Below are positions 4,635 through 19,165 of a stretch of 19,165 nt of DNA, piece after piece (within the stretch, counting starts at the first letter, position 1; each line of letters opens with the position of its first letter). Both the position numbers and the translations under genes were made by a program. Below the pieces are notes generated by a model, which made no database searches, was not told where the DNA came from, and saw only the letters and a list, made by a program, of their open reading frames with translations. The DNA is from Candidatus Heimdallarchaeota archaeon (GTDB lineage: Archaea; Asgardarchaeota; Heimdallarchaeia; Hodarchaeales; Hodarchaeaceae): the NCBI GenBank assembly GCA_020353515.1, contig CP070695.1, positions 193,683-212,847 of the forward strand, written 5' to 3'.

Positions 4635-5798
4635 ATGGTTTCAGCACGACATTTATTTACCTCTGAATCAGTAACAGAGGGACATCCTGATAAGATGGCG
4701 GATCAAATTTCGGACGCTATTTTAGATGCGATTTTGATGGATGATCCAGAGGCCCACGTTGCCTGTGAGACGTATCTTACCACAGGAATGGCGTTAATTG
4801 GTGGAGAAATTACCACATCGACTTACGTAGATGTCCAAAAAGTGGCTCGAAAAAAAATCCAAGAGATTGGCTATACTAACTCACGAATGGGATTTGATTA
4901 CAAGTCTGTGGCCGTATTAAATACTATCCATGAACAAAGTGGGGATATTGCTAGAGGGGTTGAAAAAATCCGACTTGAAGATCAAGGAGCTGGGGATCAA
5001 GGGATGATGTTTGGATATGCATGTAGAGAAACTGAATCACTCATGCCTCTTCCGATTGTCCTTGCTCATGGATTAACGAAGCAATTGGCCACGGCCCGAA
5101 AAAATAAAGAAATTTCATGGTTACGGCCTGATGGAAAATCCCAAGCCACTGTTGATTACAGCAATGGTAAGCCAACCGAAATCACATCTGTTGTTATAGC
5201 TGCCCAACACAGTGATGAAGTCAGCCATAATGAAATCAAAGAGGAAATCATTGCAAAAGTGATTCAAAAAGTGATTCCTGAACGTTACCTGACGGATGAA
5301 ACCGAATATTTCGTTAATGAGACTGGTCGCTTTGTCATTGGGGGTCCTCATGGAGACACTGGGTTAACAGGACGAAAGATCATTGTGGATACTTATGGTG
5401 GTGTGGGTTCACATGGCGGCGGTTGCTTTTCTGGCAAAGACCCCTCGAAAGTCGACCGATCTGGTTCGTATGCTGCACGCTGGGCAGCAAAAAATGTTGT
5501 CGCAGCTGGTCTTGCAGATGAATGTGAAATCCAGATTGCGTATGCTATTGGAGTTGCCAAACCTCTGTGTATCAACTTAGATACCAAGAGGTCAAATAAA
5601 ATCCCTGAACTTGACATCTTAGACCTAATCAAAAAGCATTTTGACTTCAGGCCAGGAATGATTATTGACCGACTTAAATTGAAAAGGCCTATTTACGCTA
5701 AGACGGCTGCATATGGTCACTTTGGCCGAGATGACCCTGATTTCACCTGGGAAAAGACAGATGTTGCCCAGATCTTACGTGAAGAAGCAGGATTATAG
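4635..5798 (+). CDS. metK: S-adenosylmethionine synthetase, bacterial/eukaryotic type
   Basis: [56 protein letters not shown] and [15 protein letters not shown] lies upstream. Confidence 0.98.
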
Positions 5799-5937: not shown

Positions 5938-6882
5938 ATGGTGAACATAATGGATCGAAGCACGATGGCTCAGTTGTTTGCACGGTTTCCTATAAGTATG
6001 CGATATGTTTTAGGTGTACTGTTAATTAGTGCTTACAGCTTCGATGTTCGCGTCATCAGAGATTACATTGAAGGGAAACTTGCAACAAAATTTAATTATT
6101 CTACTGAGGCCATAGATAAAATAAAATCTCTCAAGGATCATTATATGGGAGAAAGATGCTTTATTCTTGGAAATGGGCCAAGTCTGAATCAAACAGATCT
6201 AAGCAATTTGAAGAATGAGGTTTCTATCGCATCCAGTGGGATTTTTCACATATTTAAAGAAAATGATTATAGACCAACCTACTATACAGTTGTAGATTTT
6301 ATCTTTGCTCAACAATACGCTAAAATAATAGATAGAGTTATCAAAAAAGATAATATCACTGGAGTTTTGTTAAATTCACTGAAAAAATATATTCAGGGAG
6401 ATGATAGCACAATTTGGGTGAATTTCTTACCAACCTGGATACATGGTCATTACTCTCAATATACTCTTGAGAATATGGAGACAAATAGGGAGAATCCTCT
6501 ATTACCTGAATTTAGTGAAGATCTTGTTAGAGGAATTCACGATGCAGGAACCGTGACGTATGTTAATCTCCAGTTGGCTCTTTATATGGGATTTCAAGAT
6601 ATTTATTTGATTGGGGTCGACCATAACTACCATATTGAGAAAACGATCAGAACTAAAGATGAAGATATCCTGATTAGTGACTATGAAGTGGATCCAAATC
6701 ACTTTAGTCCCAATTATACCCCAAAGGGGCATAAAATGGCGGTTCCGAGAGTTAGTATAATGGAATCATCTTATTATAAGGCAAGAAAAGTGGCAGAATC
6801 TCGGGGGATAAACATTTATGATGCAACCAAAGGGGGGCAATTAAGAGTTTATCAAAAAGTTGATTATGATTCTTTATTCTGA
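5938..6882 (+). CDS. DUF115/MptE-like (Maf-related) protein, candidate nonulosonate transferase
   Basis: RCFILGNGPSL, GTVTYVNLQLALYMGFQDIYLIGVDHNY, DPNHF and IYDATKGGQLRVY. Adjacent to the CMP-synthetase. Confidence 0.75.
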   Translation: MVNIMDRSTMAQLFARFPISMRYVLGVLLISAYSFDVRVIRDYIEGKLATKFNYSTEAIDKIKSLKDHYMGERCFILGNGPSLNQTDLSNLKNEVSIASSGIFHIFKENDYRPTYYTVVDFIFAQQYAKIIDRVIKKDNITGVLLNSLKKYIQGDDSTIWVNFLPTWIHGHYSQYTLENMETNRENPLLPEFSEDLVRGIHDAGTVTYVNLQLALYMGFQDIYLIGVDHNYHIEKTIRTKDEDILISDYEVDPNHFSPNYTPKGHKMAVPRVSIMESSYYKARKVAESRGINIYDATKGGQLRVYQKVDYDSLF

Positions 6883-7601
6883 AAGTCAAATTCTTTATGT
6901 TTTTTCATTAATCTTTCTGCTTCATTTAATCTTTCTTGGGTATCAATATCAATTTTATTCTGAGGTAGATCTTCTAAAATCAGAGGTAATATTCGTTCTC
7001 CTGTCATTGAACCCATTTTAAGAATGACATGAGTCCGAACCACGTCTATATACCCTGTTTGCCAATAAATAGGTGTCAAGATTTGTCGAGGTTGGTTGTA
7101 GGCCTCTTTAATTGTAGTTTTCATTATTGGTTTTAAATATCCTTTCTCATTGATCTTCCACATTTTATAAGGATTTTCATCAGGTACTACAACAGCTCGG
7201 ACACTGTGAGCTTCTGGATTATTTATTAGTAGATTGATGGCTTTATCAACAATATGTGGGTGTCGTAATGGGCTGGTTGGCCGTAGTTGAACAATTATTT
7301 CTGGAGTATAATTTTCCTTGTCTTTTAACCACATAAGAGCGTGTGTAAAAACAGGTAGATCAGGAGTGAGATCTTGAGCAAATATGCTAGGTCGTGTAAA
7401 AGGGATTTCAGCTCCATATTGTTTACTAATAGTTGCAATCTCTGGATCATCAGTTGAAACTATTATTCGAGTAATCAATTTACTTTCTTGAGCTACTCGT
7501 ATAGAATAATAGATCAGAGGTTTATTGGATAGAATAGCAATATTCTTTTTGGGAAGTTTTTTAGAACCTCCCCGTGCTGGAATTAATGCTAAAATCTCCA
7601 T
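6864..7601 (-). CDS. neuA: Acylneuraminate cytidylyltransferase (CMP-nonulosonate synthetase)
   Basis: ALIPARGGSKKLPKKNI, IVSTDD, QLRPTSPLR, PRQ and IDIDT. Confidence 0.92.
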   Translation of the reverse strand: MEILALIPARGGSKKLPKKNIAILSNKPLIYYSIRVAQESKLITRIIVSTDDPEIATISKQYGAEIPFTRPSIFAQDLTPDLPVFTHALMWLKDKENYTPEIIVQLRPTSPLRHPHIVDKAINLLINNPEAHSVRAVVVPDENPYKMWKINEKGYLKPIMKTTIKEAYNQPRQILTPIYWQTGYIDVVRTHVILKMGSMTGERILPLILEDLPQNKIDIDTQERLNEAERLMKKHKEFDFQNKES

Positions 7602-7656: not shown

Positions 7657-8496
7657 TTACCAACAAGTCCAACCACCATCAATAATGAGATTAGCACCAG
7701 TCATATAGGAGGAGGCATCAGATAATAAGAAGATCATTGCCCCTTGGTACTCATGTTCTTTAGCCATTCTTCCCAGTGGGACTCGTGAAGAATAATTGTT
7801 GACAAAGGTCTTATCATGCCCAGCAAAAACCCCACCAGGTGTTAGTGTATTTACTCGTATCTTATATTTTGCCCAATATGTTGCAAGATATCGAGTAAAG
7901 TTTAACACAGCGCTTTTCGTGGTTGCATATCCAATAGGTGTATTGATGGATTGTTCTCCATATTGACTTTTGGTTCCTTGATATATGCGATGATCAGGAG
8001 AGACAACACCGTATGTAGAGGCAACATTAACGATTGATCCCCCATCAGAATTTTTTTTCATTTGTTTTCCAATTTCTCGTGTTACTAGAAACATTCCAGT
8101 AAGATTTGTATCTAAAGCCAGCTGCCAGAGCTTAAGAGGGTAGTTCTCAAAGGCTGAAAAGTAATCCTTGAATTCTGTTCCTCCTTTGGCTACTGTTAAA
8201 GCAGCGTTATTAATTAATCCATTGATCCTTCCATATTTCTCGAGGGTTTGTTCTACAAGATTTTGTACACTTTTCTCTGAGGTAATATCTACTTCACAAG
8301 CAAAACCTTCCCCACCAGTTTCATGCTCTAATATTTTGATAAAATCTTCAGCTCCGTTTAATTTGATATCTGCTATCACAGGATACCCATTAGCTATAGC
8401 TATTGCTTCTGCATAGGTCTTACCAAGGAGCCCCATTCCCCCAGTAATTACGACAACCTTTTCTCGAAGACTAAATAATTCTTGAATATTTCTCAT
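7657..8496 (-). CDS. Short-chain dehydrogenase/reductase, PtmA/ElaC-like
   Basis: TGGMGLLG, LINNAA, VASTYG, YATTK (YxxxK), PGG, PLGRMA and MTGANLIIDGGWTCW. Confidence 0.88.
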   Translation of the reverse strand: MRNIQELFSLREKVVVITGGMGLLGKTYAEAIAIANGYPVIADIKLNGAEDFIKILEHETGGEGFACEVDITSEKSVQNLVEQTLEKYGRINGLINNAALTVAKGGTEFKDYFSAFENYPLKLWQLALDTNLTGMFLVTREIGKQMKKNSDGGSIVNVASTYGVVSPDHRIYQGTKSQYGEQSINTPIGYATTKSAVLNFTRYLATYWAKYKIRVNTLTPGGVFAGHDKTFVNNYSSRVPLGRMAKEHEYQGAMIFLLSDASSYMTGANLIIDGGWTCW

Positions 8497-8515: not shown

Positions 8516-9475
8516 TTAATGTTTCACTTTTAATACGACATCAAGGACCATTTTTCCATCGTTCAAGGTTATGAATGGTGTTTCTCTATTTTTTACACAT
8601 TTTAGAAAATATGTGACTTCCTCAACAAACATATCATTTCTCTCATAGTTCTTTGGCGTATGGAAGACTTTCTCTTGTTTTTTAATGCGATCAAATACGG
8701 TTAGAGAATTACTGTAATAATCCCAAAATATTTTCCCCTTTTCAGCGATAATTTCGAGAGTTCTTTTGGGAGGATCCTGAATATAATCAAGGAAAATCGA
8801 ACCAATTATTTCATTCTCATGCTTAAGGTTTATAATAGAACACTCATCTGTATTCGTGGTTAATACTCTTTTTTCACTTAAATGACCATATGCTTCTTTA
8901 ACAGAGCCAAAAAGCCATATCGCTGTATCTATATCATGACTCAATGTCAGAAGTGATCCTCCTCCTAATTCATCTCTGGCACTGTATCCTTTTCGATAAT
9001 CCTCCCATGGATGCCAGTTTGGGAGATATTCTCCATACATACTTCTATAACCAACAACTTCTCCGAGAGTTTCGTTTAAGAGAATATCTCTTATTCTCTT
9101 CAAGAGCGGATGGAATCGCATATTATAACCCACCATCGTAGTAATACCTTTCTCTTGTACAAGTTCACTAAATTTATCTAATCCTTCTAATGAATTTGAT
9201 ATGGGTTTTTCAATAAATAAGTGAGCAGTAGTTCTTTCTAAGACTTTTAATGCCATTGGCACATGCATACTAGTAGGATTTGTTAAGAATACAACCTTTG
9301 GGTTTTCATTAATGGCTTCATCAAAAGCAAAGTACTCTGTTATGTTATTTTTCTGACAAAATTCCATTTTTTCTGGTCGTGATCTATAAGCAATGAGATC
9401 ATGATACCCTAGTTTCTTCAGATTTGTTGCGTGTCTTTTTCCTATTGATCCAAGTCCAATCATTAAAATTTTCAT
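8516..9475 (-). CDS. Gfo/Idh/MocA family NAD(P)-dependent oxidoreductase
   Basis: IGLGSIGKRH, LFIEKP, VGYNMRFHP, YLPNWHPWEDYR and GGGSLLTLSHDID. Confidence 0.9.
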   Translation of the reverse strand: MKILMIGLGSIGKRHATNLKKLGYHDLIAYRSRPEKMEFCQKNNITEYFAFDEAINENPKVVFLTNPTSMHVPMALKVLERTTAHLFIEKPISNSLEGLDKFSELVQEKGITTMVGYNMRFHPLLKRIRDILLNETLGEVVGYRSMYGEYLPNWHPWEDYRKGYSARDELGGGSLLTLSHDIDTAIWLFGSVKEAYGHLSEKRVLTTNTDECSIINLKHENEIIGSIFLDYIQDPPKRTLEIIAEKGKIFWDYYSNSLTVFDRIKKQEKVFHTPKNYERNDMFVEEVTYFLKCVKNRETPFITLNDGKMVLDVVLKVKH

Positions 9476-9724
9476 CTAAATACACCGTTTTTGTTGCTTA
9501 TAAATCACCAAGGCAAAATAATCAAAAATTTGTGTAATTATTTTAATCTGATGGTTTTTTGAAAGTGCTTTAAACAATTTATAGGTATTTCCAAGTGAAA
9601 TTTGTACATGTTATGGAAACTTCTGATTTTTTCATTAATGCTTTAAAATAAATTCAATTATTGCCCATTGATTTAATTAACTCTTTTTACAACTTTATTT
9701 TCCTGATCACAACTAAAATAATCT
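9476..9724. promoter_or_regulatory. Divergent promoter region between the oxidoreductase-SDR-neuA and neuB-HAD units
   Basis: About 250 bp of very AT-rich spacer with several TTTAAA/TTTATA TATA-like hexamers. Individual elements cannot be assigned. Confidence 0.45.
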
Positions 9725-10633
9725 ATGATATTAATAGAAAAGAAGTGTAAAACTTTGAAGGAGATTATTGTTGGAAATAAGCGGATTTCAGAAGATTCAC
9801 CTGTATTTTTCATTGCAGAGATTGGTATAAATCATAATGGTGATTTGGATCTCGCAAAAGAAATCATCGATATTGCTGTTTTTTGTGGTGCGGACGCTGT
9901 TAAGTTTCAAAAACGTACTTTAGAACTTTCTATTCCACAGGAAATAAGAAATAGGGCGAAAGAGACCCCTTGGGGTGAGATGACCTATTATGAATATAAG
10001 CAGAGATTAGAATTCGGAGAGTCAGAATATAAGGAGATTGATAGGTATTGTAGGGAGAAGGGAATAATGTGGTCTGCTTCTGCTTGGGATGTTCCTAGTT
10101 TAAATTTTTTAGAAGAAAGGGAAGTTCCTTTTCATAAAATTCCATCACCACAATTGACAAACAGGGAATTACTTGTTGCAGCAAGAAAAACCAATAAACC
10201 TGTGTTTTTAGGAACTGGGATGAGTACTATAGAGGAGATGGAAAAGGCTATTCACATTTTCAAAGATTACCCATTAATAATAATGCACTGCAATTCTGAC
10301 TATCCTTCTAAAAATGGTGATTTGAACCTTTCTTATATCCCTAAGCTAATAGAATTATATCCAGATCATATTATTGGTTATAGTGGGCATGAGGAAGGAA
10401 TTTCAGCCAGTCTTGTTGCAGCAACATTAGGCGCAAAAGTGATTGAAAGACATGTAACCAAAAATCGAGCAATGTGGGGTACGGACCAAGCAGCATCAAT
10501 AGAATTAAGTGGATTGAGAAGAATAGTCCGTGATTTAAAGAAATTACCAATTTGGTTAGGAAATGGTAATAAAGTGGTGACACCATCTGAAGAGCTGATG
10601 AAGAAAAAATTAAGGAATGTGAAAACTCTTTAA
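9725..10633 (+). CDS. neuB: NeuB-family nonulosonate synthase lacking the C-terminal SAF domain (KDN-9-phosphate synthase-like)
   Basis: IAEIGINHNGD, DAVKFQKR, KIPS, GMST, MHC..YP, GYSGHE, IERH and WGTDQAAS. The protein ends just after the barrel. The start may be the TTG at 9755. Confidence 0.92.
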   Translation: MILIEKKCKTLKEIIVGNKRISEDSPVFFIAEIGINHNGDLDLAKEIIDIAVFCGADAVKFQKRTLELSIPQEIRNRAKETPWGEMTYYEYKQRLEFGESEYKEIDRYCREKGIMWSASAWDVPSLNFLEEREVPFHKIPSPQLTNRELLVAARKTNKPVFLGTGMSTIEEMEKAIHIFKDYPLIIMHCNSDYPSKNGDLNLSYIPKLIELYPDHIIGYSGHEEGISASLVAATLGAKVIERHVTKNRAMWGTDQAASIELSGLRRIVRDLKKLPIWLGNGNKVVTPSEELMKKKLRNVKTL

Positions 10634-10715
10634 TTTGATTTTCTTAGGCTAAACTACTTATTAAACAAATTCAAAGAAAATAAACTTGTGATTATTTAGT
10701 TTTAATGGTTGTGCG

Positions 10716-11225
10716 GTGAAAAATATCAAAGAAATAAGTTTAGAACCCTTTGAGGCCATCAAAAAGGTAAAAATGGCTATTTTTGATGTTGATGGAATAT
10801 TTACTGATGGCTGTGTCTATGTTGATTCGAAAGGGAGAGAACTGATAAAATTTTCCAGAATAGATGGAAAAGGAATAGAATTGTTAATAGAAGCAGGTAT
10901 TCATATTGGTGTTATTTCTTCAGAAGCTAGTGATGTAGTCAAGTTCAGAATGGGAAAACTTAACATTTCTGAGGTTTATCTAGGTATCAAAAATAAATTA
11001 GAGATTTATAATAGAATAAAAGAGAAATTTCACCTTACAGATAAGGAAATTTGTTATTGCGGGGATGATCTTCAAGACATCCCGGTCTTAAGACAATGTG
11101 GGTTTTCCTGTTGTCCAAAAAATGCCCAAGATGAAGTGAAAAATATTTGTGACTATATCTCAGAGTACGAGGGAGGCAGAGGTTTTGTTAGAGATATATG
11201 CAACAAAATATTAAGTGCCATTTAA
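10716..11225 (+). CDS. HAD C0 phosphatase of the KdsC family, KDN-9-phosphate phosphatase-like
   Basis: FDVDGIFTDG, ISSE, KNKL, GDDLQD and GGRGFVRD. GTG start. Confidence 0.88.
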   Translation: MKNIKEISLEPFEAIKKVKMAIFDVDGIFTDGCVYVDSKGRELIKFSRIDGKGIELLIEAGIHIGVISSEASDVVKFRMGKLNISEVYLGIKNKLEIYNRIKEKFHLTDKEICYCGDDLQDIPVLRQCGFSCCPKNAQDEVKNICDYISEYEGGRGFVRDICNKILSAI

Positions 11226-11300
11226 CTAAATTAACATTAAATGTTGTCATCATCGTTTTTAAATGACTTAAATAATCTTAAGATTTATCCCACGAAATGG

Positions 11301-12680
11301 ATGAAAATGACCACCAATGTTGCTGTAATAGGCATGGGGTATGTTGGAATCCCCATTGCCGTCTTACTCGCCGATAAGGAAATCTTTAACGTTACTGGCG
11401 TTCAACGACGTTCAAAGCGATCAGGGTGGAAGATTGATTATCTCAATCAAGGGAAATGCCCTATTAAAAATGAACCTGATCTCCCAGAACTGATTTCAAG
11501 AGTGGTTAACGAGAAAAAAACTTTCTCAGTGACGGATGACATTTCTGTTGTTAAGAACATGGATTATGTACTAATCGATGTTCAGACCCCGACCGATGAA
11601 CAGCATATTCCACAATATGTGTCTTTAAAGGAAGTCAGTCATCAGGTTGGTCAACATCTATCAAAAGGAACTACTGTCATCATTGAGTCCACCTGTGCTC
11701 CAGGGACAACTGATTTCATTGTAAAACCTATTCTAGAAGAGGGTTCATCATTTAAGTGTGAAGAAGATTTTTTTCTTGCTTTTGCCTATGAGAGAGTCAT
11801 GGTTGGCAGGTTAATCTATAACATCTTGAATTATCCACGAATAGTTGGTGGAATTGGGGCCGAAAGCTCAGAGAAGGCAAGTTGGTTATATAAACAGGTT
11901 TTAAACAGTGAGGTTGTACAAACCACCGCACTCACGGCTGAACTCGCGAAAGTAGTGGAAAACACTTACCGTGATGTAAATGTTGGCTTTGCAAATGAAG
12001 TAGCATTAGTTTGTGAGTCATTGGGAGTAGATGTTTATGAAGTACGGGATCTTGTAAATAACCTCCCTTTTATAGAAGGAAGAGGTAATCCTCATCGAAA
12101 TATGCACATACCAGGGGCTGGTGTGGGAGGCCATTGCCTTCCTAAAGATCCCTGGTTATTGAAATATGGTGTCACACAATATGGAAAGAACCCTGTCCCA
12201 TTGAATGTGATTGAATCCAGTCGCTTCCGTAATTTATCCATGCCAAAACATGTTGTTCATCTCTTGAAAGAATGTGAAGCTGAAACCAATCGTAAGAATT
12301 CTAAAGATCAGAAAATCGCAGTTTTAGGTGTAGCTTTCATTGAAGATTCTGATGATCCCCGAAACACTCCTACACAAGATTTAGTGAATTTCCTCATTGA
12401 AGAAAATTATCTATATGCAGTTCACGATCCCTTTGTACGCCAAGATGAGGTAGAATTCCCTTTCTCATCGAATTTAGAAGAAGTTATCCGCGATTCGGAC
12501 GCGGTAATTGTTGTTACAGCCCATCAAGAGTATAAAAACTTGGATTTAAGCTACATTAAATCCTTAATGAAAGACAATCCGATATTAATTGATGGAAGAA
12601 AGACTTTTGATCCTAAAAAAGTAATTCAACAAGGTTTCAGCTATCGAGGAGTGGGTCGGGGCCAGTTTAGAACGGGTTGA
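11301..12680 (+). CDS. Nucleotide-sugar 6-dehydrogenase (UDP-ManNAc/UDP-GlcNAc dehydrogenase, WecC/WbpA-like)
   Basis: VIGMGYVG, DVQTP, IESTCAPGTT, AELAKVVENTYRDVN, PGAGVGGHCLPKD and DDPRNTP. The start is more likely ATG 11301 or 11307 than 11241. Confidence 0.92.
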   Translation: MKMTTNVAVIGMGYVGIPIAVLLADKEIFNVTGVQRRSKRSGWKIDYLNQGKCPIKNEPDLPELISRVVNEKKTFSVTDDISVVKNMDYVLIDVQTPTDEQHIPQYVSLKEVSHQVGQHLSKGTTVIIESTCAPGTTDFIVKPILEEGSSFKCEEDFFLAFAYERVMVGRLIYNILNYPRIVGGIGAESSEKASWLYKQVLNSEVVQTTALTAELAKVVENTYRDVNVGFANEVALVCESLGVDVYEVRDLVNNLPFIEGRGNPHRNMHIPGAGVGGHCLPKDPWLLKYGVTQYGKNPVPLNVIESSRFRNLSMPKHVVHLLKECEAETNRKNSKDQKIAVLGVAFIEDSDDPRNTPTQDLVNFLIEENYLYAVHDPFVRQDEVEFPFSSNLEEVIRDSDAVIVVTAHQEYKNLDLSYIKSLMKDNPILIDGRKTFDPKKVIQQGFSYRGVGRGQFRTG

Positions 12681-16780: not shown

Positions 16781-17893
16781 TTAAAGCTCTCGGACCGTGG
16801 GGATCCTAGGAATAGTTTTACTTAATTCTTTTAATATTCGCTTTGATGCTTTTCCATCACCATAAATCGAATATTTAGCAGCTATTTTTTTATTGATCAT
16901 TTCTTCAATCGCTTGGGCTATCAATTCTGGATTGTTTCCTACTATTTTATTAGCTCCTTCCTCAACGGTTTCCAACCATTCTGTTTTGTTTCTTAACGTT
17001 ACACAGGGAACTTCTAATAAGTATGCCTCCTTTTGTAAACCCCCCGAGTCAGTTAACACCAATTTGGAATTTACGACTAAATTTAAAAAATTATGATATG
17101 ATTGGGGATCTATCAGTCTAATAGACGATGGCAATTCGATTTTTGATTTTTCAATGATTTTTCTAGTGTGTGGATGAATAGGAAAAATAGAAGTAATTCC
17201 AGTTTCTCCAATCGTTAGAAATATTTCATTGAGTTTTTCTGAGTCATTTAAGGTTTCACGTCTGTGAAGAGTCATTATTAAATAATCTTTCTTCTCAATT
17301 CCCAAATTTTCAGCTGCAGACTCAAATATCTTCCTATCAATTATCGCTTCTTTTTCTGAAATCAATAATTCTTGCATTGTATCGCCAGTAAACATGATAG
17401 TGCCAAGAACTGATTCTTTTTCTAAATTCTGAATAGCCATTTTAGTTGGAGTAAAGAGAAGGGCCGACCCGTGATCAATTAATCGTCTGTTAATTTCTTC
17501 TTGCATCATTAAATCAAAACTTCTTAATCCTGCTTCAATATGACACACAGGAATTTTTAGGAACATTCCTGCTAGAGCTCCAGCCAAAGCTGAATTTGTG
17601 TCTCCTGGAATTAACAATCCATCATAATTTTCCTTCTTGAGGATTGGAATTAGTTTTTTGAGGATCATTCGGATATGATAGTCTGTGGATCCTGAGCGTA
17701 CATCTAGTTCGTAATCAGGAGAATCCATTAATAGATTTTTAAAAAACACATCAGAAAGATAAGAATCATAATGTTGCCCAGTGAAGATATGGACAATTTC
17801 AATCTCAGTCAGCGTTTCGACATTCTTAATAAGGGGTACGGATTTAATAATTTGTGGTCTGGTTCCTGTAACAAGTGCATACTTTTTTACCAT
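16781..17893 (-). CDS. wecB: Non-hydrolysing UDP-N-acetylglucosamine 2-epimerase family
   Basis: GTRPQIIK, TGQHYD, GDTNSAL, HIEAGLRS, EEINR, TLHRRE, TDSGGLQKEA and YGDGKAS. The start is probably ATG 17893. Confidence 0.92.
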   Translation of the reverse strand: MVKKYALVTGTRPQIIKSVPLIKNVETLTEIEIVHIFTGQHYDSYLSDVFFKNLLMDSPDYELDVRSGSTDYHIRMILKKLIPILKKENYDGLLIPGDTNSALAGALAGMFLKIPVCHIEAGLRSFDLMMQEEINRRLIDHGSALLFTPTKMAIQNLEKESVLGTIMFTGDTMQELLISEKEAIIDRKIFESAAENLGIEKKDYLIMTLHRRETLNDSEKLNEIFLTIGETGITSIFPIHPHTRKIIEKSKIELPSSIRLIDPQSYHNFLNLVVNSKLVLTDSGGLQKEAYLLEVPCVTLRNKTEWLETVEEGANKIVGNNPELIAQAIEEMINKKIAAKYSIYGDGKASKRILKELSKTIPRIPTVREL

Positions 17894-18187
17894 AATAACC
17901 AACTTTTTAATCCGTCTGATAACGTCTATTTCAAAATGAGGAAGCAAAATAACCAAAGACAGAGTGCTAAATGGCGAATAGATTCTTTGGAATTTGAATA
18001 TTTTGTTATTATTATTTCTTAAAATTGATATGAACTGTAAGTGAAAAAAAATGAAGATGAAACAAATTTTTATAAAATCTCAAGATTAAGATTCGCCTGA
18101 AATAATGAATAAGTACTTTGATCTTTCTCCTAGATGATTACCAAGGGATATCATGTCTAAGTTTCAGAGACAATAGGTGACGAATTA

Positions 18188-18779: not shown

Positions 18780-19165
18780 ATGAAAGCTCTCGTGACTGGG
18801 GGTGCAGGATTTATTGGTCGTTGGCTTGTAAAGAGGTTACTTGACGCCAAAAATTATGTTATTGCCTTGGATGATCTTTCTAACGGAAGAAAAGAAAACA
18901 TTGCTGAGTTTGAAGGTAATTTGTCTTTTGAATTTGTCAAAGGGGATATCAGAGAAGAAAGCTTGATTGATAGCCTGCAATTTGATGATTGTGACATCGT
19001 TTATCATTTAGCTGCAGAAATAAATGTTCAAAAATCACTTGATAATCCTTCTGAAACATTTCAAAGAGATGTTGTAGGCACATTTAACATTTTAGAGCAA
19101 TGTAGAACTTTCAAAGTGAAATTTGTATTTGTCTCTAGTTGTATGGTTTATGATAAGTCTTTTGA
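18780..19165 (+). CDS. NAD-dependent epimerase/dehydratase (extended SDR), truncated by the window edge
   Basis: Not in the ORF track. Translated by hand: MKALVTGGAGFIGRWLVKRLL...LDDLSNG...GDIR...YHLAAEINVQKS...GTFNILE...FVSSCMVY. GAGG motifs lie upstream. Confidence 0.92.
   Translation, partial: MKALVTGGAGFIGRWLVKRLLDAKNYVIALDDLSNGRKENIAEFEGNLSFEFVKGDIREESLIDSLQFDDCDIVYHLAAEINVQKSLDNPSETFQRDVVGTFNILEQCRTFKVKFVFVSSCMVYDKSF

Follow-up and report, generated by a model that had tools for sequence, protein, structure and literature searches.

The 19,165-base stretch of Candidatus Heimdallarchaeota DNA analysed here (the window) is one whole contig of a metagenome-assembled genome (MAG). Near its middle, at 9725-11225, it encodes a synthase of the NeuB family followed on the same strand by a HAD phosphatase of the KdsC family, a pair that the original prediction had read from the letters alone as a phosphorylated sialic acid route of the 2-keto-3-deoxynononic acid (KDN) type. 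We find that the two genes are well supported as a known, widespread and usually mis-named kind of nonulosonate-9-phosphate synthase and phosphatase. The route is known from Bacteroides, Streptomyces, algae and animals, and a 2021 survey knew of no characterised archaeal sialic acid synthase (PMC8208679). What is new here is the host lineage, an Asgard genus, and the variant of the partner enzymes that accompanies the pair.

The synthase and the phosphatase beside it

The synthase matches Pfam NeuB over residues 47-283 (236 bits), that is the barrel alone, and the Pfam search found no SAF domain in it, in line with the tail-less NeuB that had been predicted. Thousands of homologues of about 292 aa share the same conserved C-terminal tail, so the window NeuB is not a truncation. 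Its Lys60, Gln62, Lys138, His222 and His243 align with Lys53, Gln55, Lys129, His215 and His236 of Neisseria meningitidis NeuB, His222 and His243 being the metal pair, Lys60 and Lys138 the phosphoenolpyruvate-binding lysines and Gln62 the catalytic residue, which is followed by Lys63-Arg64. It is the one NeuB of the whole host genome and scores below the cut-offs of both the N-acetylneuraminate synthase equivalog TIGR03569 (230.7 vs 399.65) and the pseudaminate synthase equivalog TIGR03586 (171.5 vs 340.25).

As expected from the original prediction, the HAD scores above the threshold of the KdsC/YrbI subfamily model TIGR01670 (139.9 against 106.95 bits) and carries the motifs Asp24/Asp26, Ser68, Lys94 and Gly116-Asp117-Asp118. 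The GTG start is supported by same-genus orthologues, in which the 19 residues ahead of Met20 are conserved. The prediction had also pointed to a stretch reading ISSE...RMGKL, with Glu and Lys 11 residues apart, in place of the ITGR of phosphatases acting on the 8-phosphate of 3-deoxy-D-manno-octulosonate (KDO-8-P). These residues are Glu70 and Lys81, and E. coli KdsC indeed reads IITGRK. In the proposed alignment with KdsC and the Bacteroides KDN-9-phosphate (KDN-9-P) phosphatase BT1713, Asp24, Glu70, Arg78 and Lys81 fall in the columns of BT1713 Asp10, Glu56, Arg64 and Lys67, and KdsC keeps the Arg only; the BT1713 numbering was read off PDB 3e81, with which a Lewinellaceae orthologue was aligned by HMMER, and was transferred by MAFFT. 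Glu56 and Lys67 are confirmed in 3e81, and their use as a mark of KDN-9-P phosphatases is reported to go back to Lu et al. 2009 and to Daughtry et al. 2013.

To see how general this Glu/Arg/Lys triad is, we compared it across NeuB-adjacent HADs and found it in 78 of 78 (77 from the loci described below, plus the window). The five solved KDO-8-P phosphatases that were compared (Legionella 3n1u, Aquifex 2p9j, Bacteroides 4hgn, E. coli 3i6b and Xanthomonas 4nav) all keep only its Arg, so that the match is far from chance. At the position of the Glu, KdsC proteins have Arg, Gly or Ala, and at that of the Lys they have Thr, Gln, Glu, Asp or Ala; what they share with the window HAD is the C0 fold family, the conserved carboxylate-binding Arg and the TIGR01670 match. 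The HAD is the sole KdsC-family gene of the host genome, and the KDO-8-P synthase model TIGR01362 (KdsA) gave no match in this genome, which is 96% complete, making KDO-8-P an implausible substrate.

The link between the two genes extends far beyond the window. We inspected 80 loci, mostly from Streptomyces, among the matches listed in GTDB species-representative genomes. A KdsC-type HAD adjoins the NeuB family member in 77 of them, and the order cytidylyltransferase-HAD-NeuB is likewise found in 77. Such HADs are also found fused to the synthase or to the cytidylyltransferase. Examples of HAD-NeuB fusions are P0037 and P0123, the latter of a Nanoarchaeota MAG. Cytidylyltransferase and HAD are fused in Streptomyces, in Chloroflexota and in other Asgard genomes, and Streptosporangiales commonly have cytidylyltransferase, HAD and NeuB in one protein of about 680 aa, 471 long proteins being matched at E<=1e-40. 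Within the Asgard sample, NeuBs at least 44% identical to that of the window are present in only about 10 of 201 genomes; 8 of 10 such NeuBs have an adjacent HAD compared with 0 of 10 more distant ones, a count that is descriptive only as the genomes are related. The module is found widely among bacteria and archaea, and its distribution over Asgard genomes is patchy.

Some further observations concern these protein families. The cytidylyltransferase-HAD fusions measure about 390-416 aa and include L110 and L112 (Asgard genomes G143 and G131), L026, L057 and L061 (Chloroflexota) and L005 (Streptomyces). Two long proteins, P0124 (771 aa) and P0130 (587 aa), contain NeuBs 52-57% identical to that of the window over nearly its whole length; their fusion partners, a B12-binding radical SAM or a methyltransferase domain, hint at tailored nonulosonates elsewhere. 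Automatic protein-atlas names for the window NeuB include 'N-acylneuraminate-9-phosphate synthase', which we take as a lead only. The commonest known phylum in its nearest atlas cluster is Uroviricota, and phages may carry this SAF-less synthase.

Phylogeny and a residue pair after the catalytic glutamine

We placed the window NeuB in a maximum-likelihood tree of 47 sequences, a check suggested with the original prediction; the tree has few taxa and includes neither eukaryotic sequences nor a verified PseI. A branch supported at 100/99 splits all NeuBs of the tree that are known to have a HAD beside them from 11 classical NeuBs, of which five pass TIGR03569 and one lies in a legionaminic-type cluster, and the window NeuB falls outside the classical clade. 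The HAD-linked side holds SAF-less members, two Asgard NeuBs that align across the SAF region and eight NeuBs encoded beside BT1713 orthologues. There the window NeuB nests among sequences of Woesearchaeota, Pacearchaeota, Thermoplasmatota, Patescibacteria, Caldiserica and Bacteroidales.

The same division is seen in the two residues directly after the catalytic Gln (Gln55 in N. meningitidis). All 36 HAD-linked NeuBs sampled have Lys (or Arg) followed by Arg (or Lys), and none of the 11 classical NeuBs does, these having Thr and an aromatic residue instead. Among solved classical NeuBs the Gln is followed by T-H in N. meningitidis, M-F in Bacillus subtilis SpsE and A-Y in the Leptospira enzyme 6ncs. 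The window NeuB reads F-Q-K-R at residues 61-64 (window 9905-9916). An experimentally characterised precedent is the Prymnesium KDN-9-P synthetase, a SAF-less enzyme of about 305 aa that is specific for mannose 6-phosphate (Man-6-P) and inactive on mannose (PMC6200933); like the window NeuB it has the motif, reading K-F-Q-K-R (short motifs compared by eye). Unlike the window, the alga has no KdsC-type phosphatase that was found, and its cytidylyltransferase PpNeuA has an Arg196 where the window enzyme has Met. Lys63-Arg64 would bind phosphate, and we propose the pair as a signature of phosphosugar use, perhaps a better predictor of it than SAF loss.

SAF loss itself turned out to be a poor guide, against the use of a short NeuB as a mark of the route. 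We located BT1713 orthologues in Bacteroidales by the KDN-9-P phosphatase equivalog NF058599 (23 of 301 genomes) and by PDB 3e81, which one of them matches at 227 bits. The NeuBs beside them, of about 346 aa, can be aligned with the 329-position NeuB model over its whole length and so keep the tail across the SAF region. Conversely, Leptospira 6ncs is SAF-less yet lacks the Lys-Arg pair, and SAF-less NeuBs of environmental bacteria have already been described (PMC8208679). Absence of the SAF domain is thus unsuitable for inferring a phosphate route, which is better recognised by linkage to a HAD, by the Glu/Lys pair and by the Lys-Arg pair.

The KDN pathway of Bacteroides thetaiotaomicron (BT1714, BT1713 and a CMP-KDN synthetase) follows the same three-step logic, with a NeuB-family synthase adjoining a triad-bearing HAD, and the NeuBs beside BT1713 orthologues lie in the same HAD-linked clade as that of the window. 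It differs in the longer synthases just described and in having no counterpart of the two oxidoreductases that the window adds.

The surrounding genes and an oxidoreductase-linked form of the module

The window genes are collected in Table 1. The AT-rich intergenic region parts a unit of oxidoreductases and cytidylyltransferase from the unit of NeuB, HAD and dehydrogenase.

Table 1. Genes and features of the window, in order of position
Feature	Position	Strand	Remarks
Glycosyltransferase	upstream in window		first gene of the block recurring in same-genus genomes
HTH-CBS regulator, with split MetE and MetK	upstream part of window		
MptE-like protein (DUF115, Maf/PseE-like)	5938..6882	+	Pfam PF01973; candidate nonulosonate transferase
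CMP-nonulosonate cytidylyltransferase (predicted)	6864..7601	-	Pfam CTP_transf_3; LegF/PtmB-like, SDR-linked subtype
PtmA-like short-chain dehydrogenase (SDR)	7657..8496	-	
PtmF-like Gfo/Idh/MocA oxidoreductase	8516..9475	-	divergent from NeuB
Intergenic region	9476..9724		AT-rich, divergent
NeuB, predicted nonulosonate-9-phosphate synthase	9725..10633	+	Pfam PF03102; SAF-less, 302 aa
KdsC-family (C0) HAD, predicted nonulosonate-9-phosphate phosphatase	10716..11225	+	169 aa, GTG start
NDP-sugar 6-dehydrogenase (UDP-ManNAc dehydrogenase-like)	11241..12680	+	15 nt after HAD
PIG-L deacetylase; open reading frame without assignment; ATP-grasp ligase; GT4	after dehydrogenase		
Non-hydrolysing WecB-type epimerase	16781..17956	-	TIGR00236 291.5 bits, above cut-off; NeuC model 64 bits
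GNAT	near window end, after epimerase		
Epimerase/dehydratase	18780..19163		truncated by contig end

The cluster is cut at both ends. In the host genome record, 113 contigs are strung together with spacers of 100 N, two of which bound the window, so that the sequence past either end is no true neighbour. The block from glycosyltransferase to dehydrogenase recurs whole on a 233-kb contig of the same-genus genome G139 and is also present in the same-genus genome G062, which places the window contig in an Asgard lineage; the closest relatives of its NeuB carry the names Promethearchaeota (81%) and Hodarchaeota (71%). As no archaeal SSU rRNA was found in the genome, the identity of the host is based on these relatives and on the synteny within the genus. 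Both genomes also keep the arrangement around the intergenic region, and the 15-nt spacing from HAD to the co-oriented dehydrogenase is common to all three, the order being kept within the genus. The dehydrogenase probably serves another sugar of the same glycan, and together with the nearby WecB-type epimerase it fits synthesis of UDP-ManNAcA for that glycan rather than supply of N-acetylmannosamine (ManNAc) to NeuB. As had been predicted, the window holds no hydrolysing NeuC, its epimerase being of the WecB type, and no aminotransferase of the DegT family. Homologues of the MptE-like protein sit near an equivalent module in the Chloroflexota loci L057 and L084.

Several side observations were made on the host and its relatives. 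The MetK gene (4635-5798) is of the bacterial/eukaryotic type, with the Pfam S-AdoMet_synt N, M and C domains, in an archaeal contig; its protein is 87% identical in G139, so this is not a binning artefact. The best dataset matches to the locus are sediment metagenomes, and there is no RNA dataset among those listed. In G139 a full legionaminic/pseudaminic-type set (L108, 523-8445) follows 7 kb downstream of the NeuB-HAD block and is made up of a Gfo-like oxidoreductase, a flippase, a SAF-bearing NeuB, a protein of the UDP-GlcNAc 2-epimerase family (Pfam Epimerase_2), a hexapeptide acetyltransferase, a DegT aminotransferase and a 4,6-dehydratase. Near this set no further cytidylyltransferase was detected, and no such set is present in the window's own genome.

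The oxidoreductases and the cytidylyltransferase resemble the PtmF-PtmA-LegF(PtmB) trios of legionaminic loci in Campylobacter, Vibrio and Plesiomonas, where a Gfo/Idh/MocA oxidoreductase, an SDR and a cytidylyltransferase are likewise found together. The window has neither the SAF-bearing LegI nor the NeuC-type epimerase, aminotransferase and acetyltransferase that those loci use, and they in turn have no HAD. The model scores remain below cut-off for both the cytidylyltransferase (PseF, 149 bits) and the SDR (PRK09186, 197.7 bits; FlagModPtmA, 131 bits), and solved homologues of the Gfo and SDR proteins give no pointer to their substrates.

One indication of the sugar may come from the cytidylyltransferase. 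In PpNeuA, Arg196 gates KDN against N-acetylneuraminic acid (Neu5Ac), and an R196L mutant switches preference (PMC12934254). We set the gate position by profile alignment to PDB 9t4z (chain numbering offset 18), phmmer having covered the N-terminus only. The window enzyme has Met at this position, together with the motif G-Y-I-D, and so does not have the Arg of a KDN-specific CMP-sialic acid synthetase. Its residues are those of a subtype. In the 12 loci in which an SDR is linked to the module (the window, G139, G062, Chloroflexota and one Lewinellaceae genome) the cytidylyltransferase reads G-[HYQ]-[IV]-[DE] without exception and has Met or Leu at the gate, apart from one that has a gap there; the SDR adjoins this subtype in all 12 cases. 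The 75 cytidylyltransferases without an adjacent SDR read G-x-x-Y in all but one, mostly G-A-x-Y, and 73 of them have the gate Arg.

The synthases change along with their partners. NeuBs of the 12 SDR-linked loci never have Phe117 or Gln227 and carry smaller residues instead, compared with Phe117 in 72 and Gln227 in 71 of the 74 others. In the window both residues are Ser. Both positions adjoin conserved active-site motifs, the one lying at the W-x-A-S-x-W-D strand and the other five residues after the metal-binding His. SDR-linked loci are found at at least three places on the NeuB tree, so that the correlation does not stem from one inherited event, with few independent cases. Two observations bear on how far the gate can be trusted: trout CMP-sialic acid synthetase (CMAS) has Leu there yet prefers KDN, so that Arg is not universal among KDN-active enzymes (PMC12934254), and at L123 the cytidylyltransferase encoded next to a BT1713 orthologue is without the gate Arg too.

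Streptomyces walls carry a KDN teichulosonic acid (PMC11481543), and the only locus kind seen in this genus, among the matches listed, is the cytidylyltransferase-HAD with a SAF-less NeuB, the HAD being nearly identical to PDB 3mmz. Such actinomycete loci share with the window the SAF-less NeuB family (48-57% identity), the triad-bearing HAD and the gene order, and differ in their G-A-x-Y and gate-Arg cytidylyltransferase, in NeuB Phe117/Gln227 and in having neither SDR nor Gfo partner. On the evidence of these residues the module comes in two forms, one that matches known KDN producers and the uncharacterised form of the window. The Chloroflexota locus L057, of the SDR-linked form, shows additional genes: a hexapeptide-repeat acyltransferase (1116-1802) lies between the Gfo oxidoreductase and the SDR, and on either side of the cytidylyltransferase-HAD and NeuB genes is a large protein, one of 670 and one of 530 aa, that matches nothing in Pfam.

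The route, the sugar and the alternatives

From the observed gene links, marker residues and clade we infer the substrate and the product of the pair as follows. The NeuB homologue would condense phosphoenolpyruvate (PEP) with a hexose 6-phosphate, of which Man-6-P is the simplest candidate, to give a nonulosonate 9-phosphate. The HAD would then take off the 9-phosphate, gripping the nine-carbon acid by Glu70/Lys81 and Arg78, and the divergently transcribed cytidylyltransferase would make the CMP-sugar for a surface glycan. Because of the conserved synteny, the fusions, the Glu/Lys marker, the Lys-Arg signature, the phylogeny and the lack of a detectable KDO pathway, we consider it likely that NeuB and HAD make a nonulosonate by way of a 9-phosphate intermediate. 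The predicted chain from hexose 6-phosphate and PEP through KDN-9-P and KDN to CMP-KDN is thereby upheld in its phosphorylated part by synteny, fusions, residues and tree. For its sugar the prediction was too specific: the activated product would be KDN itself or, with much the same likelihood, a relative of it, a 9-hydroxy nonulosonate in which a substituent or stereocentre is altered, either epimerised or with a bulkier C5 group.

A number of points weigh against the phosphate route or against KDN as its product. The HAD stays below the KDN-9-P phosphatase equivalog NF058599 (131.5 vs 180 bits), as it does below the KdsC equivalog NF007019 (139.3 vs 208), so that its assignment is based on the marker residues and the gene context rather than on overall similarity. 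NF058599 is narrow, being passed in the 23 Bacteroidales genomes mentioned and in 0 of 4 other Bacteroidota genomes with NeuB-linked HADs. The top-scoring solved matches of the HAD are KDO-8-P phosphatases, nearer than BT1713, and the window NeuB is just 34-39% identical to the BT1714-type synthases. The tree is sparse in the ways already given and, to our knowledge, no archaeal member of the SAF-less NeuB family has been assayed. The Met at the cytidylyltransferase gate and the departures from Phe117 and Gln227 separate the window from the Streptomyces type. The contig is cut at both ends, leaving the gene cluster incomplete, and the sister genome G139 has its complete legionaminic-type set close by.

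One explanation of the locus is that plain KDN is made from Man-6-P and PEP and that CMP-KDN is the final donor, the SDR and Gfo proteins serving another sugar of the glycan. This is quite possible, somewhat short of an even chance. Family members from KDN-producing Streptomyces are 48-57% identical, the host genome has an archaeal bifunctional phosphoglucose/phosphomannose isomerase that could supply Man-6-P, and neither NeuC nor NanE was found in it above cut-off (two WecB-type genes were the only ones), in addition to the lack of an aminotransferase in the window. The trout and L123 enzymes suggest that a missing gate Arg need not count against it. Harder to reconcile with it is the strict coupling of the SDR to the Met/Leu-gate subtype and to NeuBs without Phe117 or Gln227. 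This coupling, and the retention of the oxidoreductase pair with the module in Asgard, Chloroflexota and Lewinellaceae genomes, would be accommodated if the phosphate route led to an ulosonic acid that differs in chain length or stereochemistry, with Gfo and SDR first epimerising or oxidising the sugar phosphate, or with some other aldose phosphate as substrate. We regard this as unlikely, given that the Glu/Lys pair marking nine-carbon substrates is retained and that the solved homologues of the oxidoreductases are uninformative as to what these would act on.

More doubtful still is a route of the animal type, from ManNAc-6-P and PEP through Neu5Ac-9-P and Neu5Ac to CMP-Neu5Ac. BT1713 also turns over Neu5Ac-9-P. 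The hydrophobic Met occupies a gate at which Neu5Ac-active CMAS enzymes have Leu, the smaller NeuB residues could fit a larger substituent such as N-acetyl, and the window contains a WecB epimerase and a GNAT. However, the WecB product is UDP-ManNAc, for which the dehydrogenase next to the HAD suggests a use in UDP-ManNAcA instead, the window has no hydrolysing epimerase or sugar kinase, and no NanE is found above cut-off. Classical, unphosphorylated NeuB, LegI or PseI chemistry, with the HAD in an unrelated function such as that of a KDO-8-P phosphatase, appears very improbable. The top-scoring solved matches of the HAD, the legionaminic character of PtmF/PtmA/LegF-like trios and the nearby set in G139 would agree with it. 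Set against these are the position of NeuB outside the classical clade (100/99) and below both equivalog cut-offs, the existence of HAD-NeuB fusions, the KDO-8-P synthase missing from the searches of the 96% complete genome and the lack of legionaminic-type genes at the only NeuB locus of this genome; moreover, a 6-phosphate is impossible on 6-deoxy sugars.

Returning to the phosphate route, we hypothesize, tentatively and with more doubt than confidence, that the SDR/Gfo-linked form found in the Asgard genus, Chloroflexota and Lewinellaceae makes an undescribed 9-hydroxy nonulosonic acid that is not KDN, Neu5Ac, legionaminic or pseudaminic acid. Its marks would be the G-[HY]-I-D motif with a Met or Leu gate and a NeuB with two smaller residues near the active site. 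In that case the Lys-Arg pair would predict the use of phosphosugars in NeuB proteins generally.

It had also been suggested that such a locus in an archaeon amounts to an animal-like sialic acid logic. Animals do use a three-step logic through a 9-phosphate intermediate (PMC6200933, PMC8208679), as the window would. The C-terminal domain of animal CMAS is KdsC-like (PDB 3ewi, matching the window HAD with E=5.5e-18), and the domain order of CMAS recurs in the cytidylyltransferase-HAD fusions of other Asgard genomes. NANS, however, keeps the antifreeze-like domain, and NANP comes from a different HAD family than the KdsC type (PMC8208679). The suggestion holds as an analogy but not as a special feature, the module being as widespread and as patchy as described. 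We see no evidence of a special link to eukaryotes, the NeuB tree containing no eukaryotic sequences, and the module alone does not tie Asgard archaea to eukaryotic sialylation.

In view of these results, the database names "N-acetylneuraminate synthase" and "KDO-8-P phosphatase" are probably wrong for these two genes. As the phosphate-route module is well supported in this Asgard archaeon, its surface glycans probably carry a sialic-acid-like sugar.

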